38,359 nt of DNA from Candidatus Krumholzibacteriia bacterium (lineage in GTDB: Bacteria; Krumholzibacteriota; Krumholzibacteriia; WVZY01): assembly GCA_036478295.1 (NCBI GenBank), contig JAZGDW010000303.1:1-38359 (forward strand), in the 5' to 3' direction. The position numbers and the translations under genes are program-made. The notes beneath the pieces are model-generated. The model was given only the letters and a program-made list of their open reading frames with translations, ran no database searches and was not told where the DNA came from. The first letter of the stretch is position 1; the number at the start of each line of letters is the position of its first letter. Below are positions 15,324 through 22,866 of the stretch, in pieces.

Positions 15324-15509
15324 CCCACCTAAACCCCCTAGAGAGTGTGACTTAGAAGTTAGTACTTGAAAATATCACACACCTGCGTCACAGGCAACCT
15401 TTTTGTCCGCGACGTGGAGAAGAAACGCATTGACAGGGGCTCAGTTAGCCCATCACCCTGCACTGGATGTGCACGGTGCGCCAGCGTGCACCCAGACAGC
15501 GAGGCGGAG

Positions 15510-18011
15510 ATGTCCATGGAACCGCTGCATGTCCAGAAGCTCCGGATCCCCGTACTGCTCTTCATGGGCGGGATCGTGCTGCTCACGTTCCCCGGCTCCC
15601 GTGACCTTATTCAGTCGCCGTATTCGGGTATCGAGACTCAAAACCTCGTGGTTCAGAACATCCAGGCTCTCGGTCCGAACGCCGATGCCGGTATCCGCCG
15701 CGGGGACCTCATTGTATCCGTGCAGGGCACGCCCGTTCGAAACCGCAATCACCTGCGCCACCTGATCCGTCCCAACACCGCGTTTGCCCCCCAGGGATAC
15801 ACGTTTGACCGGGACGGACGCACGGTTGCCGTGCAGGTCCGGTACACGCGAATCCCCGCTGCCATCGTCAACCGCCATTTCGCCTCCGTCCTGGTCGGCT
15901 TTACCTTTCTCGTGATGGGATTGCTGGTCTTGCTGCGCCGCGCGGACTCGGTCGGCATCCTCTTTTCGGTAAACTGCGCAATATTCGCATATTTTCTGAG
16001 CGATAAGCCGGTACCCCCGTCGACATTCCTGCAGCTCTCGGGCGAGCTCTTCCACGATCTCGTCATGCTGGGATTTCCCGCGGTGTTCCTGCATTTCTTC
16101 CTCGTTTTTCACGATCGGCCGCACAGTCTCGGCAGGCGCGCGCGTGTGCGCCGCGCCGTGGCCATCTACACCCTGCCGGCTGTCATCTACATCGTGAGCT
16201 CGTTCTTTGCCGTTCGTTCCTTTCTCCTGCTCCCGGCATCGCAGCTGGCAGTCCAGTTCATCATCATTGCCTCAACACTGTACATGGCTGTGTACCTGAT
16301 CACGTCGCTCGTGGTCTTCATACGGAACTACCGTGCCTCGTCGAGAGCCCAAAAGCAGAAGCTGCGCATCGCCATCACCGGGACCACGGTGGGCATCCTG
16401 CCGTTCCTGGGGACGACGGTCTGGCGGCAGATTGCGACCGGGACAAATACACCGCTCGAGTTCGTGTCCGTCCTTTCATTGTCCTTCATTTCGATTTCGT
16501 TCGCGTACACGATCCTCAAACACGGCGCGATCGAGCTGAACATCGTTCTGAGGCGGAGCCTGGGATACGCGTTTCTCGCCGGGATTATCGTGGCCACCTA
16601 CTATGGCGTGGTCGACCTGCTGGGAAATTTCCTCAAACAAGAATTCACGTTGTCATCGGCCATGTCGACGGCGTTCTCGATGGTGACCATCGTTATCCTC
16701 GCCCTCCTCCTCGCACCCGCGAGGAGCATGGTGCTGCGTGTGGTCGACCGCCTGTTTCGGCGCAATGACTATGACTACATGCACGAGGTACTCGAGTTCG
16801 GGCGCCAGCTCTCCAAAAAGTTGAAGAAGACCGAGATTCGCGATCTCTTCTGCGAGCGGGTCACCGCGCTTCTCGACGTATCGTTCTTGGCGTGCTACAC
16901 GCCGAACGGCGAAGATAGCGACTGGCGACTGGACCATGTCTGTGGAGAAGCAGCGTCGGCGCCAGAGCTATTCCCCAGGGGATCGCTCCTGGACCGCTAT
17001 TTCAGCCGCTACAAGAAGCCGCTGATGGTGGAGTACCTGGACTACGACTGGGGACGGCGACACCTCGACCGCACTTCGACGGACTTTCTCAGGTCGAGCC
17101 GGGCGGCCGTGTGCCTGCCGGTGGTCGCCTCCGAGACGATTATCGGAGCCGTGGTCCTGGGCGCCAAGAATTCGGGACGCCTGTACACGCAAACCGATTC
17201 CCTGCTCCTGGAGCGCTTTGCGGCCCAACTCGGTCTAGTCCTGGAAAACGCCGCCCTGCATGAAGCCACCGTCGAACAGGAGCGCCTGAAGAGCGAGGTG
17301 ATGCTCGCCCGTGAAATCCAGCTCAGCTTGCTGCCCAAAGAGTCCCCCCGCCACCCGGCCATCGAGTTCCTGGGCAAGATGACCAGCTCGGAGGAAGTCG
17401 GAGGGGATTATTTCGACTACTTCGCCCTGGGGAGCGATCGCTTCGGTGTCTGTATCGGGGATGTCAACGGACACGGGGTACCCGCGGCCATGCTGATGTC
17501 GTCCATTCAGGCGGTCTTCAAGAATCTCGCCGTCAAGGACAAGATGAACCCTGGCGAGCTGGTGACCGAGCTCAACCGCTACCTGTGCGGCAACGGCAAG
17601 GACGACCAGTTTGCCACGTTTTTCTATGGGACCGTGGACATGGTGGATTCGACCTTCACCTACTCCAACGCCGGTCACTGCCCCGCCCTGCTGCTCAAAC
17701 GGTCCTACGCCGACCGCCTGGGCGAAGGCGGCATGCCCCTGGGCGTCGACGCCGGCCAGACCTACCAGGAGGGCCGAACCCGCATCGAGCCCGGGGATAC
17801 GCTCTGCCTCTATACGGACGGGATCATCGAGCAGACCAACCCGGACGACGAGGAATTTGGGGAAAACGGTCTCATCGAGTTCCTACGGGCGAACAGGAAT
17901 CTTCCACTCTCGCGACTGCAGGAGATGCTTTTTGCCCGAGTTCTTGCCTTTGGCCGTGGCGTCCATCACGACGACGTTACGTGCATAATTGCCCACCATA
18001 AAGCCGCTTAG
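15510..18011 (+). CDS. PDZ + multi-TM + GAF + SpoIIE/RsbU-type PP2C phosphatase
   Basis: PDZ (GP.ADAGIRRGDLIVSVQG), many TM helices, GAF (LGAKNSGRLY), PP2C motifs VGGDYFD, GDVNGHGVPAA, YTDGI, DDVT. Start moved to the ATG at 15510 (or 15516) after GAGGCGGAG. Confidence 0.9.
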   Translation: MSMEPLHVQKLRIPVLLFMGGIVLLTFPGSRDLIQSPYSGIETQNLVVQNIQALGPNADAGIRRGDLIVSVQGTPVRNRNHLRHLIRPNTAFAPQGYTFDRDGRTVAVQVRYTRIPAAIVNRHFASVLVGFTFLVMGLLVLLRRADSVGILFSVNCAIFAYFLSDKPVPPSTFLQLSGELFHDLVMLGFPAVFLHFFLVFHDRPHSLGRRARVRRAVAIYTLPAVIYIVSSFFAVRSFLLLPASQLAVQFIIIASTLYMAVYLITSLVVFIRNYRASSRAQKQKLRIAITGTTVGILPFLGTTVWRQIATGTNTPLEFVSVLSLSFISISFAYTILKHGAIELNIVLRRSLGYAFLAGIIVATYYGVVDLLGNFLKQEFTLSSAMSTAFSMVTIVILALLLAPARSMVLRVVDRLFRRNDYDYMHEVLEFGRQLSKKLKKTEIRDLFCERVTALLDVSFLACYTPNGEDSDWRLDHVCGEAASAPELFPRGSLLDRYFSRYKKPLMVEYLDYDWGRRHLDRTSTDFLRSSRAAVCLPVVASETIIGAVVLGAKNSGRLYTQTDSLLLERFAAQLGLVLENAALHEATVEQERLKSEVMLAREIQLSLLPKESPRHPAIEFLGKMTSSEEVGGDYFDYFALGSDRFGVCIGDVNGHGVPAAMLMSSIQAVFKNLAVKDKMNPGELVTELNRYLCGNGKDDQFATFFYGTVDMVDSTFTYSNAGHCPALLLKRSYADRLGEGGMPLGVDAGQTYQEGRTRIEPGDTLCLYTDGIIEQTNPDDEEFGENGLIEFLRANRNLPLSRLQEMLFARVLAFGRGVHHDDVTCIIAHHKAA

Positions 18012-18028: not shown

Positions 18029-18045
18029 CTGGAACGCTTCTTGCG
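18029..18045 (+). promoter_or_regulatory. Sigma-54 promoter candidate
   Basis: CTGGAACGCTTCTTGCG = GG-N10-GC, one mismatch from TGGCACG-N4-TTGC. Confidence 0.55.
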
Positions 18046-18119
18046 CTAGCCATTCGTTGCAATCCACGAAATACACCAAGAGCAGGTAAGTCAAGACCCT
18101 ATCCCAAGGGGGGTACGTC

Positions 18120-18167
18120 ATGCGTAAGATTTGCCTTATCGATCTACTCTGGTGGTTAAGAAGGTGA
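18120..18167 (+). CDS. 15-aa micropeptide MRKICLIDLLWWLRR (leader-peptide-like)
   Basis: AAGGGGGG RBS 6 nt before the ATG; tandem Trp codons; followed by a strong hairpin. Too short for the ORF track. Confidence 0.45.
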   Translation: MRKICLIDLLWWLRR

Positions 18168-18173
18168 GTTATT

Positions 18174-18222
18174 CGGTGTTCCCGCTTGCTCAGCAGGTGA
18201 TTGCGCGCAACCGGGAACACCG
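18174..18222 (+). other. Long RNA hairpin downstream of the micropeptide
   Basis: Perfect 11-bp CGGTGTTCCCG/CGGGAACACCG plus inner TTGC/GCAA; followed by a pyrimidine tract rather than a poly-U run. Confidence 0.6.
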
Positions 18223-18430
18223 CCCTTCTCCCCTCTCAATCGGCCCTCCGGCCGTACTCTACAAGCTCCTACGTTAGGTAACACGTGTAACCTGTTATTC
18301 ATTAATGTATTAAGTGCTAACCACCACATATGGTAGGCTCGGTGGTACGCCTGCCAGAAAACACTTTAGGTAACGGGTTTAATGGTCTGTCACGAGTTCA
18401 CATATGAGGGGCAAAAAGTTCCGATGCGGG

Positions 18431-18460
18431 TTGACAATTTCTGGCTGACCCGTCTATACT
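18431..18460 (+). promoter_or_regulatory. Near-consensus sigma-70 promoter
   Basis: TTGACA-N18-TATACT with no downstream + strand protein gene. Confidence 0.7.
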
Positions 18461-18466
18461 AATGAC

Positions 18467-18601
18467 AACGAGAGCATCCCATTCCATCCCGTGAGCCCTC
18501 TGCTCTCAAGCTAGATTGCTTAAGCGAAGCGGTTGCCGCATGGGCCTCTGACGGGCATTTGCACCACGTTTGGAAGGGGCTTCTGCTCTCGTTACTTTTT
18601 T
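18467..18601 (+). ncRNA. Candidate structured small RNA (~135 nt)
   Basis: Starts at the predicted TSS. AACGAGAGCA pairs with TGCTCTCGTT (18584-18593); inner pairs TTCCA/TGGAA, CGTG/CACG, GCCC/GGGC; two small hairpins; ends in a T6 run. Confidence 0.6.
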
Positions 18602-18659: not shown

Positions 18660-20048
18660 TTATTGTCCGAGTGCTCGAGCCACCTGTTCGCTAACCTCGC
18701 GTGCGTTGTCGACGCAATCCACGACGGAAACGCCGCCGCGAAAATTGCCGGTCACAAACAAACCGGGCACACGCGACTCGAGTTGCTCGATGGATTCGAT
18801 GATCCTGTTGTGGCCGAGATTGTACTGGGGGATCGCCTTCGGCCATCTCTTGACGACCGTGACATCGGCAGGCCTCTCGATACCCAGCAAATCGCGGAGT
18901 TCTTCTTGTACCACTGCCACTAACTCGTCGTACGAGGCGGTCGCCGCCGCGGGCGATCGCCCACCACCGATGTAGGTGGTCAGCGCCACCCCGTTTGCCG
19001 GCGCACGACCCGGGAACACTGACGAGTTCCATAGCGTACCCAGAATCCCGCGCGCTTCCCTGGCGGGGACCAGGAACCCGAAGCCTCTCAGGTCGACCGC
19101 CGCCGGGTTGGCGTTGTATCCGAAGAACACGACACTGACCGGGGGGTACGTGATGCGCTTCAGCGCGTCATGGATGGGCGGCTCGAAATCCAGGTGCACA
19201 TCGTCGTAGGCGCAGGCAGGTATGGTCAGGACGGCGGCCCGGCACCGGAGTCTTGCCGCGCCGGCGGCGGACTGCAGGTGGAGCAGGAAACCCGAGTCGC
19301 TCCTGTGTACCGCCTTGAGCCGCGTGCCGGTTTCGATCGAGTCGGCGAGCCGCGTCCCCAGTGCATCGACCAACGTCTGCATACCGCCTTTGAACGACAG
19401 CATGCCCTTGCGGGTCTCGGAATCGGCGCCTCGTTTACTCCGTTCCCTCTTCCCCATGATCGCCCCCTTGATGAGACTCCCGAAGCGCTGCTCGAGTTCG
19501 TAGAGTGTGGGAAACGCGGCACGCACACTGAGATCTTCGGGCACGCCCGCGTATACACCGGCGACAAACGGGTCAATGGCGTAGTCGAGCATTTCCTGGC
19601 CGAGGCGGCGCTTGACGAACACGGCGAGCGACTCCTCCGCATCGGGATCGCCGGGGCGCACGAAGGGCTCTTTGAGCACGCGCAGTTTCGCCCGCAACGA
19701 GAAGAGATCTGTTTTTACGGCAGAGACGAGACCGAGCGGCAACTGGCGCAGACGTCCGCCGCGCACGATGTAGCGGCGCCTGGCCCGGGGATCCGCGTAT
19801 TCGAGGGATGCAGAAATGGCGAGGTCGGCCAGCAGCGTTTCGATCGCCGGTGTGGTCTTGAGGACACTGGTCGGTCCGTGCTCGAAGAGAAACTCGTTCA
19901 CCCGCTCGGACCGGATGACGCCGCCCGGCCGGTCGCTCATCTCCAGCACGCGTACACCAATGCCACGGCGCTCGAGGAAATGCGCGATGCAGAGACCGGT
20001 GATCCCGGCCCCGACAATGCCGACCTCGATGCGGGCCGACGGGCTCAT
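18660..20048 (-). CDS. hemG: Protoporphyrinogen/coproporphyrinogen oxidase (HemY-type flavoprotein)
   Basis: GAGITGL, GGVIRS, EHGP, PFVAGVYAG, GFGFLVP, RWPKAIPQY..GH; RBS GGAAGGAG before the ATG at 20048. Confidence 0.92.
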   Translation of the reverse strand: MSPSARIEVGIVGAGITGLCIAHFLERRGIGVRVLEMSDRPGGVIRSERVNEFLFEHGPTSVLKTTPAIETLLADLAISASLEYADPRARRRYIVRGGRLRQLPLGLVSAVKTDLFSLRAKLRVLKEPFVRPGDPDAEESLAVFVKRRLGQEMLDYAIDPFVAGVYAGVPEDLSVRAAFPTLYELEQRFGSLIKGAIMGKRERSKRGADSETRKGMLSFKGGMQTLVDALGTRLADSIETGTRLKAVHRSDSGFLLHLQSAAGAARLRCRAAVLTIPACAYDDVHLDFEPPIHDALKRITYPPVSVVFFGYNANPAAVDLRGFGFLVPAREARGILGTLWNSSVFPGRAPANGVALTTYIGGGRSPAAATASYDELVAVVQEELRDLLGIERPADVTVVKRWPKAIPQYNLGHNRIIESIEQLESRVPGLFVTGNFRGGVSVVDCVDNAREVSEQVARALGQ

Positions 20049-20073
20049 GTGCCGCGTGCTCCTTCCCAGGCCG

Positions 20074-21162
20074 TTAGTAACCCGACACCTGCTCGTCCGG
20101 TAGCAGTTGCGGTTCTTCCTGCTCACACCAGCTGACCAGAGTGTCTACCCAACGCGGATGATCATTGAGACACGGAATCATCTCGAACCGCTCGCCGCCC
20201 GCCGACAAAAAAGTTTCCCTGCCCCTGATCTCGATCTCTTCGAGAGTTTCCAGGCAGTCCGTCACGAATGCCGGACAGATAACTTTCAAATTCTTGACGT
20301 GCGATGCGCCAAGCCGATGTAATTCCTCCATCGTCGCCGGCTTGAGCCAGGGGTCCCGTCCCAGGCGCGACTGAAACGCGACCGAATACCTGCCGGCGGG
20401 GATTCCCGCCCGCTCGACGAAGAGGTCGGTGGTTCGCAAGACCTGGTGGCGATAACAGGTCCTGTGGGCCACGGACGCGTCCTGGCAGCACGAATCCCCC
20501 TGCAGGCAGTGCCCGCCCGTGGGATCGCTCTTTGTCACATGTCGCTCCGGTAGACCGTGGTAACTGAACAACAGGTGATCCATGTCGCCGTTCAAGCGGT
20601 CGCCGGCACTTTCCACCAGTGCGTCCATGTAATCTGGGTCTTGGTAAAACGGTGCGATCACCTCGAGCTTTACGGGCGCGTGCATCTTGTCGATTACCCT
20701 CTTGACTTCGGCGACGGAGCTTTCGTAGCTGGACATGGCATAATGTGGGTAAAGTGGGATCATCCGTATCTGTTCGATGTCGCCCCCGCGCAGGATACGG
20801 GCGATCGCATCAGCAATGGAAGGGTTTCCGTAGCGCATTGCCAGCGCCACCGGCGACGACACCCTCCGCGCTACCATCTCCTGCACGCGCTTGCTCGTGG
20901 CAACGAGCGGTGATCCTTCGCTGCTCCATATGGTGCGGTAGGCGGCTGCGGACCGGGCGGCTCTGAAGGGCAGGATCGTGCAGGTCACGATGAACTTGCG
21001 CAGCGGCCAGGCGACGTCGATTACCCGTCCGTCCATCAGAAACTGGTGGAGATATCGCCTGACATCACGCGGTGTCGGGGCGTCCGGCGAACCGAGGTTC
21101 ACCAGGAGCACACAGCGTTTCGGCCTGGATTCGTCAGATTTAGCCTCGGCCATTTCCATCAT
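20074..21162 (-). CDS. hemH: Ferrochelatase
   Basis: LLVNLGSP, AMRYGNPS, PLYPHYA, FSYHGLP, FQSRLG..PW, FVTDCLETLEEI. Confidence 0.95.
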   Translation of the reverse strand: MMEMAEAKSDESRPKRCVLLVNLGSPDAPTPRDVRRYLHQFLMDGRVIDVAWPLRKFIVTCTILPFRAARSAAAYRTIWSSEGSPLVATSKRVQEMVARRVSSPVALAMRYGNPSIADAIARILRGGDIEQIRMIPLYPHYAMSSYESSVAEVKRVIDKMHAPVKLEVIAPFYQDPDYMDALVESAGDRLNGDMDHLLFSYHGLPERHVTKSDPTGGHCLQGDSCCQDASVAHRTCYRHQVLRTTDLFVERAGIPAGRYSVAFQSRLGRDPWLKPATMEELHRLGASHVKNLKVICPAFVTDCLETLEEIEIRGRETFLSAGGERFEMIPCLNDHPRWVDTLVSWCEQEEPQLLPDEQVSGY

Positions 21163-22559
21163 ACGGTTCGGGAGTAAATCTGCTTCTTGCCGTCATGACC
21201 GTCCTGCAGGTAGCGGTCGAATATCATGGCGATGTTGCGGATGATCAGCCGGCCCTTCTCGTGAACCTGGAGCCGGTCGGGCAACATGGACACCAGGCCG
21301 TCGTCGACGAACTCGCCGAGCCTGGCAAGCGCTCGGGCAAAGTAGTCATCGAAATCAACGGCGTACCTCCGTTCAACTTCCGATTTGACAACACGGCTGT
21401 TACACATTAGCTCGGTAATGACGTAGCGCCGCAGTTGATCGTCGTCGTCCAACCGGCAACCGGAAAAGGCTGGAAGGCCGCCGCTTTGTATATCCGCCTT
21501 GTATTCGTTGATCGTCTTTCGGTTCTGCACGTAGACGTGCCGCAGCTGGCTGATCGAGGACACGCCCATGGCGTAGATCTCCAGTTCGGCATGGGTGCTG
21601 TAACCTTGAAAATTCCGGTGCAGCGTGTGGTCCGCCAATGCGGTCGACAGCTCGTCGCCGGGTTTGGCGAAATGGTCCATGCCGATGTACACGTAACCCG
21701 CGCCGGTCAGGCGATCGATGACCATCTTGAGAATCTTCAACCGGTCACCGGCGTTCGGCAGCGATTCCTCGGGAATAATCTTCTGGTGTTTTTTCAACCA
21801 TGGCACATGCGCGTAATTGAATACGGCCAGCCGATCCGGCGCGATGTCGATGATTTTGTCGATGGTGATTTCATACGAGTCCAGGGTTTGGTACGGCAGG
21901 CCATAAATCAAATCGACGTTGACGGAGTCGAACCCCAGTTCCCTGCTCTTTTCGACCACGGCCCGTGTCAGCGCCTCCGGCTGAACGCGGTTGATCGTTT
22001 CTTGCACCTTGGGGTCGAAATCCTGCACCCCGTAGCTAACGCGAGTGAACCCGGCGTCCCTGATACTCGGCAGGTGATCGTCGGAAAGCCGGCGCGGGTC
22101 TATCTCGACACTGACTTCGGCCCCGGCGGCAAAGTCGAAACGGTCTTGTATAAAGGAGCTGATGTCACGTATTTGCGGCGGGGTGAGATACGTCGGAGTG
22201 CCGCCTCCCCAGTGCATCTGCACCACCTTACGGTCGGGGTGGGTGAGGCCCGCAATGAGATCGATCTCTTTCTTGAGGTGCGCGAGATAGTCTTCGATCT
22301 GGTTGCGGTCATGCGTAATCGTCATGTTGCAGCCGCAGAAATAACAGAGAGATTCGCAAAACGGAAAGTGGAAATAGAGCGAGAGGTCCGGCAGATCCGT
22401 CCCGCGGTTCGAATCCACGATTTCCCGGTGGTACTCTGCTGCGCCAAAATCCTCGCTGAAATGGGGCGCGGTGGGATAGCTCGTGTAGCGCGGCCCCGGG
22501 CGGTCATACTTTTGCAGTAGGTCCAGGTCTACGCTCATGCCGTCTTCGCGAGAGGTCAT
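21159..22559 (-). CDS. hemN: Oxygen-independent coproporphyrinogen III dehydrogenase (radical SAM)
   Basis: GPRYTSYPTA, HFPFCESLCYFCGC, HWGGGTP, IGMDHFA, HRNFQGY; start at 22559 (RBS AAGGAAG) or 22538. Confidence 0.96.
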   Translation of the reverse strand: MTSREDGMSVDLDLLQKYDRPGPRYTSYPTAPHFSEDFGAAEYHREIVDSNRGTDLPDLSLYFHFPFCESLCYFCGCNMTITHDRNQIEDYLAHLKKEIDLIAGLTHPDRKVVQMHWGGGTPTYLTPPQIRDISSFIQDRFDFAAGAEVSVEIDPRRLSDDHLPSIRDAGFTRVSYGVQDFDPKVQETINRVQPEALTRAVVEKSRELGFDSVNVDLIYGLPYQTLDSYEITIDKIIDIAPDRLAVFNYAHVPWLKKHQKIIPEESLPNAGDRLKILKMVIDRLTGAGYVYIGMDHFAKPGDELSTALADHTLHRNFQGYSTHAELEIYAMGVSSISQLRHVYVQNRKTINEYKADIQSGGLPAFSGCRLDDDDQLRRYVITELMCNSRVVKSEVERRYAVDFDDYFARALARLGEFVDDGLVSMLPDRLQVHEKGRLIIRNIAMIFDRYLQDGHDGKKQIYSRTV

Positions 22560-22866
22560 ACACTTCCTTATTTGATTGCTGTACACTACTGAATATTAAT
22601 AGGTTACGCTTATTTTGCATATGTGGCTGTGCTCTAAATTAAACACAAAGGCACCTGGAGTTCAACGCTAATATCGATGGCGGCCGATCAGCCACGTGCT
22701 GTGAATCGGTGGCCCGCTGTCTGACGTGGGGCTGACGGTGGCGCGAACGGCCTGTGCGGTACCAGTGGCGGTGGGTACGTGGTCGAGCGGCAAAGCTCCG
22801 CGGCATCAATTCTGCCGACTCGAAGCGCACTCGGCCACGCGCACTATGATCTTGCTCGAGTAAGAC

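Follow-up and report, generated by a model that had tools for sequence, protein, structure and literature searches.

A structured small RNA, apparently uncatalogued, encoded beside a membrane phosphatase gene and a micropeptide gene in Krumholzibacteriia

In type I toxin-antitoxin systems such as tisB/IstR and timP/TimR, as at the locus described here, an sRNA gene adjoins the gene of a short hydrophobic peptide; in the present case, however, complementarity is not conserved, the peptide persists without the RNA, and inheritance is vertical and single-copy. Small SRP RNA (RF00169) has a similar size, a rod shape and paired ends, but its helix 8 is without a match in our RNA. 6S RNA (RF00013) is also a stand-alone rod with paired ends and a strong sigma70 promoter, and the closing-stem motif of the phylum's 6S finds a tentative resemblance in f1, f2 and partly f5 (f1 to f9 denote families, and g20 and g39 genera, of the class Krumholzibacteriia, with G000 being the source genome). 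It differs in being about 180 nt long according to PMC11077062, against 120-145 nt here, and in its open-promoter bubble, our RNA having only short internal rod loops and a branched conserved head; our RNA also lacks an RF00013 match and coexists with canonical 6S in the same genomes. That same paper describes Ms1/CoRP as lineage-specific structured RNAs that bind RNA polymerase (PMC11077062), a precedent for phylum-restricted structured RNAs acting via a protein, with the differences that no sequence or model match connects them to our RNA and that protein binding by the latter is putative. On the peptide side, MgrB is reported (PMC2789325, PMC8404706) to be a small membrane feedback peptide tied to PhoQ; this combination of a small membrane peptide with a membrane signalling enzyme may serve as a model, by analogy, for the peptide-phosphatase pair of our locus, where the peptide is 15-22 aa long, has no Pfam/NCBIfam match and has a PP2C phosphatase as its putative partner.

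The window, meaning the whole stretch of 38,359 nt that we analysed (contig JAZGDW010000303.1), carries a cassette in the order phosphatase gene, sigma54-type site, peptide ORF, hairpin and small RNA, with the following features.

15366-18011, + strand: gene for a PDZ - multi-pass membrane - GAF - SpoIIE (PP2C-type) phosphatase (Pfam PDZ_2, GAF_2 and SpoIIE; nine hydrophobic segments)
18030-18044, + strand: sigma54-type -24/-12 site, GG-N10-GC (10/12 consensus positions)
18106-18167, + strand: G-rich ribosome-binding site and 15-codon ORF MRKICLIDLLWWLRR (ORF 18120-18167), with a conserved core
18174-18222, + strand: GC-rich hairpin ending the peptide transcript (inverted repeat I1)
18431-18460, + strand: sigma70-type promoter of the small RNA, TTGACA-18-TATACT (11/12 consensus positions)
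18467-18601, + strand: small RNA with closing stem P1, interrupted rod, three-way head and U-run
18467-18476/18584-18593, + strand: closing stem P1, 10 bp (inverted-repeat search, I5)
18490-18493/18565-18568, + strand: rod element CGUG/CACG (covariation model)
18501-18505/18553-18557, + strand: rod helix P5 (covariation model)
18506-18508/18549-18551, + strand: rod helix P6 (covariation model)
18509-18548, + strand: conserved three-way head (homologue alignment and covariation)
18523-18531, + strand: head stretch AGCGAAGCG (sequence conserved in homologues)
18535-18537/18542,18544-18545, + strand: small bulged head hairpin with a GCNY loop (covariation)
18596-18601, + strand: T run of six T (sequence)
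18660-20126, - strand: convergent hemY/hemG-type oxidase gene, a neighbour in this genus only and outside the cassette

The small RNA, at 18431-18601 with its promoter, is a real gene and apparently an uncatalogued one, and the evidence supports its being a transcription unit of its own, structured, about 135 nt long and outside Rfam. The promoter, the 10-bp stem joining the two ends and the terminal T run, which the first-pass annotation had read from the sequence, are all in place as listed. Promoter-like sites in 3 kb number 2 against 0.8 expected, and across the 58 whole-genome loci of the small RNA the TTGAC box is kept in 58 and the -10 box in 56, with the promoter 35-40 nt ahead of the closing stem in 31/31 homologues. 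For the 135-nt strand the predicted folding energy is -51.3 kcal/mol (z = -2.66; equalled by 3 of 200 shuffles), median folding z per family runs from -2.2 to -2.8 over the same 58 loci, and length is 127-138 nt in f1/f2 and about 117-148 nt in f5/f6. Conservation beyond chance expectation holds for the promoter, the closing stem, the rod and the core. The Rfam 15 covariance models gave no match at gathering score in the window, only three chance matches around the locus when relaxed to E 10, and no credible match on the small RNA at six homologue loci, which supports the earlier proposal that the RNA is new. ARAGORN called no tRNA or tmRNA in the window, which removes both as candidates, and the 6S, SRP, tmRNA and RNase P RNAs of the source genome all lie on other contigs. 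SRP RNA was likewise rejected, there being no helix-8 match and the genome having its own copy elsewhere; the absence of helix 8, of a tRNA cloverleaf and of typical 6S length had been anticipated and agrees with these searches and with the f1/f2 lengths. A hammerhead ribozyme has a catalytic core of invariant bases, and it was discarded on look-alike CUGAN and GAA elements whose positions vary among homologues, and on the lack of an Rfam match. Two further sequence features of the window are not evident in homologues: an AT-rich spacer at 18271-18330, which contains an 18-bp near-palindrome, and an inverted repeat of 10 bp (18408-18417/18597-18606) that brackets promoter and small RNA.

Evaluating the fold across homologues revealed a rod of 39 pairs with 91.9% of cells paired and two-sided changes at 11 pairs (31 f1/f2 sequences); 0 of 500 shuffles scored as high and slid controls reached 35-50% paired, in a kind of test that sequence kinship inflates. 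The check by covariation therefore bears out the interrupted helix into which the closing stem had been thought to continue. Closed by UCA/UGA, the head contains a 2-bp GC/GC hairpin with a variable loop. Its top covarying pair closes the 18535-18545 hairpin and is kept in 78/78 distinct homologues (61 C-G, 16 U-A, 1 U-G), the U-A change being essentially one clade-level event. As for the two capping hairpins originally drawn, both sequences are present, but the GCGG-TTG-CCGC cap is disfavoured against the 18535-18545 hairpin, the latter model collecting 25 two-sided cells versus 12 for the original hairpins in 67 sequences. RNAalifold run unconstrained on the 31 sequences preferred a different inner hairpin, and on a four-family MAFFT alignment it collapsed to 3 pairs; the head fold is accordingly presented as a working model. 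Rod sequence turns over between families while head sequence is retained, though not invariantly, with an f2 sub-clade and family f8 altering the 18523-18531 stretch. A conformational switch had also been suggested, in which the 5' GAGAGCA would pair with a second TGCTCTC and expose a C-rich, anti-SD-like loop. The second copy does exist at 18501-18507, but the switched form lies 10.7 kcal/mol above the MFE and both of its parts occur together in 33 of 78 homologues; the supposed loop (18477-18490) is the paired 5' strand of the rod, with its sequence in 2 of 78 distinct homologues. Both the switch and the C-rich stretch are conserved no more than chance.

The distribution of the RNA was followed with an intergenic-region BLAST, where matches in 32 of 41 related genomes fell into two separate blocks, and with covariance models built from 31 homologues (R1) and from the head (R2). 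Of the 151 genomes of the class, R1 found a single copy in 59, within four families (f1 11/12, f2 20/23, f5 16/35, f6 11/12) and none in f3, f4, f7, f8 or f9, and R2 found 61 of 151 (f5 26/33, f6 10/10, and one weak partial match among 60 in f3). Diverged rods with the same promoter at the same location were seen in f9 (E 0.14) and in three of five fetched f8 loci. An exact 22-base pattern occurred in 31 stretches of 185,579 species genomes, 15 of them titled Krumholzibacteriia or Latescibacterota, 12 unclassified and 4 bearing other labels, and R1 judged six named-genome loci of this pattern to be three true and three chance. Among 106 pattern matches in metagenomes were 29 full-length copies, two cut at the 5' end and three weak ones, while the two pattern matches on viral contigs came to none by R1. 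The RNA is vertically inherited, single-copy and syntenic, rather than patchy or mobile.

Upstream of the small RNA, a phosphatase homologue is found at 30 of 32 f1/f2 loci, the contigs of the remaining two being cut short, and at 27/27 f5/f6 loci. Residues 177-641 of the phosphatase (membrane and GAF) match, at E 6e-11 and far below cut-off, the sensor part of PrsK, the kinase of the PEP-CTERM system. A search pattern that itself demanded GG and GC called the GG-N10-GC site at 55 of 56 loci, and the source genome has rpoN and 18 GAFTGA-like motifs. The peptide (15-22 aa, core DLLWWLR) was recovered by profile search in 125 of 151 genomes, 60/60 in f3, and its gene is single-copy in all but one genome, with one copy in G000. 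Because 52 distinct DNA versions of the seven-residue core encode only 6 protein versions, the peptide is under protein-level selection; three long forms of it had no match in Pfam or NCBIfam. A Trp attenuator, suggested by the WW codons, was rejected: conservation at the protein level extends over the entire core, W is replaced by F in one homologue, and no downstream gene is retained. The hairpin after the peptide keeps its stem in f1/f2 and takes a U-tailed terminator form in f5/f6. In all 11 f6 loci read by eye (L202-L207, L210, L211, L220, L225, L227), a 5-codon mini-ORF follows the peptide stop and precedes the terminator; it has a purine-rich ribosome-binding site of its own, an unconserved sequence and a stop that abuts the terminator stem, and a similar one of 4-5 codons is seen in 3 of 7 f7 loci (L258, L262, L264). 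In f3 (L234-L244), reading by eye shows GG-N10-GC followed by TCAAG/TAAAG-N15-GCCGAT upstream of the peptide, an arrangement that resembles a sigma28-type promoter, so a switch of sigma factor may have taken place for the peptide in that family.

The first-pass annotation had further proposed that the RNA possibly acts with the upstream micropeptide, a claim that holds for linkage but not for start-region pairing. The peptide gene lies upstream of the small RNA in 58/58 loci, and in genus g20 (2 fetched loci) the two are inverted together relative to the phosphatase. Peptide and phosphatase also occur with no RNA behind them, at 11 f3 loci, at 7/7 fetched f7 loci and in genus g39 of f8, and the peptide-RNA linkage may therefore be old synteny only. 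Pairing was assessed by a duplex scan, including accessibility, of all 68 cognate RNA/peptide-mRNA pairs, which gave no common site and weak energies once accessibility was counted. In G000 the peptide's own start region ranks 1219 of 2914 for pairing with the RNA, with no enrichment against 2913 other, crudely called start regions, and the median percentile of the cognate start region is 0.66 in f1, 0.16 in f2, 0.46 in f5 and 0.87 in f6.

These results bear directly on the idea of an antitoxin, or dedicated antisense repressor of the peptide in the manner of type I toxin-antitoxin systems. Its appeal lies in a short hydrophobic peptide with an inducible promoter and a constitutive RNA adjoining it at every one of those loci, and in the 10-14-bp duplex that is possible over the start region in f2. 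The percentiles in f1, f5 and f6 and the rank in G000 speak against it, as do the single-copy, syntenic state of the RNA and its absence by R1 from viral contigs, and because entire families (f3, f7) and part of f8 have the peptide but not the RNA, we hold such a role to be very unlikely.

Base pairing with more distant partners has somewhat better prospects, although we still regard it as doubtful. Here an Hfq-independent sRNA would use the unpaired AGCGAAGCG or the head GCCUC as seeds on one or more conserved distant mRNAs, in keeping with the unpaired conserved stretches of the head, one of them anti-SD-like, with the RNA's own promoter and U-run, and with an f2 head whose potential pairing spans the SD and start codon of the peptide (the low f2 median above). 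However, no target stood out among the crudely called start regions of G000, the seeds change in sub-clades with no accompanying partner change seen, a complement in RNase P RNA exists in 1 of 6 genomes, and the repeats in which the complement is also present are abundant in f1 only; RNase P RNA and the REP-like repeat were both dropped as targets on these grounds. The repeat itself is about 100 nt, dispersed over many contigs of G000 (55 matches, none near the locus), and contains the same 10-mer as the small-RNA head, with many copies in several f1 genomes and 0-3 elsewhere. Mimicry of 23S rRNA helix 30/31 was rejected with 22% and 98% of shuffles as good at two loci, and mimicry of a tRNA D-arm/anticodon with the best alignment to 40 own tRNAs equalled by 52% of shuffles. 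An Hfq-dependent sRNA is not tenable with Hfq (PF17209) in 0 of 101 genomes searched (control rings in 5/14). A decoy of the CsrB/RsmY type fails likewise, since CsrA was found in 0 of 14 f1/f2 genomes and not in G000, and no GGA is conserved. csrA is present in 38/38 f3 and 9/9 f6 genomes, against those 0/14. For a Y RNA, the partner Ro60 (TROVE, PF05731) was not found in G000, which is 91% complete and was the sole genome searched.

On the downstream side, the convergent oxidase gene belongs to an ordinary hemN-hemH-hemY operon (18660-22586, - strand), and its end lies 58 nt from the T run in the window. That proximity is what favours the proposal that the RNA is a 3' structure or an antisense regulator of the hem transcript, yet hemY follows the small RNA in only 2 of 32 loci and the promoter is conserved on the small RNA's own strand. 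In f5/f6 the place is taken instead by a convergent tRNA-Arg(CCT) gene, which in f5 sits behind a bidirectional terminator; at the loci L202-L228, L245-L247 and L267 this gene lies downstream of the RNA or the peptide, in f1/f2 varied genes replace it, and the tRNA list of G000 is without tRNA-Arg(CCT). A small RNA accompanying tRNA-Arg in f3, f4 and f7 was sought at six tRNA loci of five genomes and gave neither an R2 match nor a promoter. Synteny thus refutes a general hem role, both as action on the convergent transcript and as a mere hemG 3' structure, and to the hem reading as a whole we assign almost no weight. Nor is the small RNA a cis leader, because no same-strand gene is kept downstream.

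Of expression there is a weak hint. In one metatranscriptome run the stretch is present at a low proportion, and the three contigs from it, which derive from relatives, cover the small RNA, the peptide ORF and the end of the phosphatase gene; the contig over 18483-18602 has 6 other letters, adapter at both ends and a depth of 3.5. Because these contigs reveal neither strand nor ends and the library may contain DNA, they hint at expression only weakly, and parts of the stretch left uncovered in this run prove nothing.

Taken with the comparisons above, the best reading, which we hold with about even confidence, is a protein-bound structured RNA with a conserved three-way head. Protein-bound RNAs usually combine a rod whose sequence turns over with a compact head that is kept, and we prefer this reading because the rod covaries with changing sequence while the head keeps its sequence. 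The small RNA (120-145 nt, stand-alone) would be transcribed constitutively by sigma70, and its 5' and 3' ends would close a long irregular rod that presents the small, sequence-conserved head. It would then act via a protein bound to it, as an RNP or a decoy, rather than by antisense pairing. The RNA is co-inherited with, and probably tunes, a module made up of the membrane PP2C phosphatase and the predicted sigma54-driven membrane micropeptide, and by analogy with MgrB the micropeptide may regulate the adjacent phosphatase by feedback.

A more specific version of the protein-bound reading, which we consider unlikely, is that the RNA is a 6S paralogue which became shorter, with its closing stem retained and its bubble lost, and which binds RNA polymerase, either as core enzyme or as sigma70 or sigma54 holoenzyme. 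The outer rod of f2 matches the phylum 6S closing-stem profile in register at p<=0.05 (5' strand 17/19, 3' strand 15/19), fewer f1 rods do so at that threshold (6/12 and 3/12), and f5 matches in 18/21 with a 1-nt gap, this gapped comparison covering the 5' strand only. The 6S gene also lies 21-70 kb from the cassette in the nine genomes with both on one contig (G008, G015, G038, G043, G044, G048, G054, G059 and G073). Set against this, the profile has no match in f6 (0/11), f8 (0/3) or ungapped f5 (0/16), related sequences do not give independent matches, and five other look-alikes had been considered before this idea was picked. The 6S covariance model gives f2-type rods 9-14 bits (E 0.03-0.5) versus 15.8 bits for an unrelated hairpin, an HMM test was not significant, R1 does not find 6S, and the small RNA is too short and without a central bubble in genomes where canonical 6S is present. 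Canonical 6S was found in 33 of 41 genomes with Rfam and in 5/5 f6 genomes with the phylum model; the Rfam model fails in 5 of 6 f6 genomes where the phylum model detects 6S. Whatever its ancestry, the small RNA is not a member of the 6S family.

Our literature search on a Krumholzibacteriia/Latescibacter small RNA, the peptide and the core sequences returned no description, most subscription papers and supplementary motif catalogues being outside its scope, and the lineage literature found on small RNA concerns CsrA, with other titles being ecological or genomic. Both the RNA family and the phosphatase-micropeptide-RNA cassette are therefore apparently undescribed. For a phylum with Hfq in 0/101 genomes, these observations add a covariation-supported RNA family and a near-universal gene for a 15-22-aa peptide, each of them invisible to standard annotation. 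Since its length makes the RNA accessible to in vitro probing and pull-downs, the use of small RNAs where Hfq is missing, and the question whether 6S has given rise to paralogues with new partners, become testable here. As a long shot, the RNA could descend from a 6S duplicate in which the closing stem persisted and a new head replaced the promoter mimic, its present partner being sigma54 RNA polymerase or a regulator in the phosphatase pathway; phosphatase, sigma54-driven micropeptide and decoy RNA would then make up an undescribed, phylum-wide, Hfq-free feedback circuit of peptide plus RNA. More broadly, an RNA kept across several families beside the same peptide and phosphatase points to an undescribed signalling module in these bacteria.
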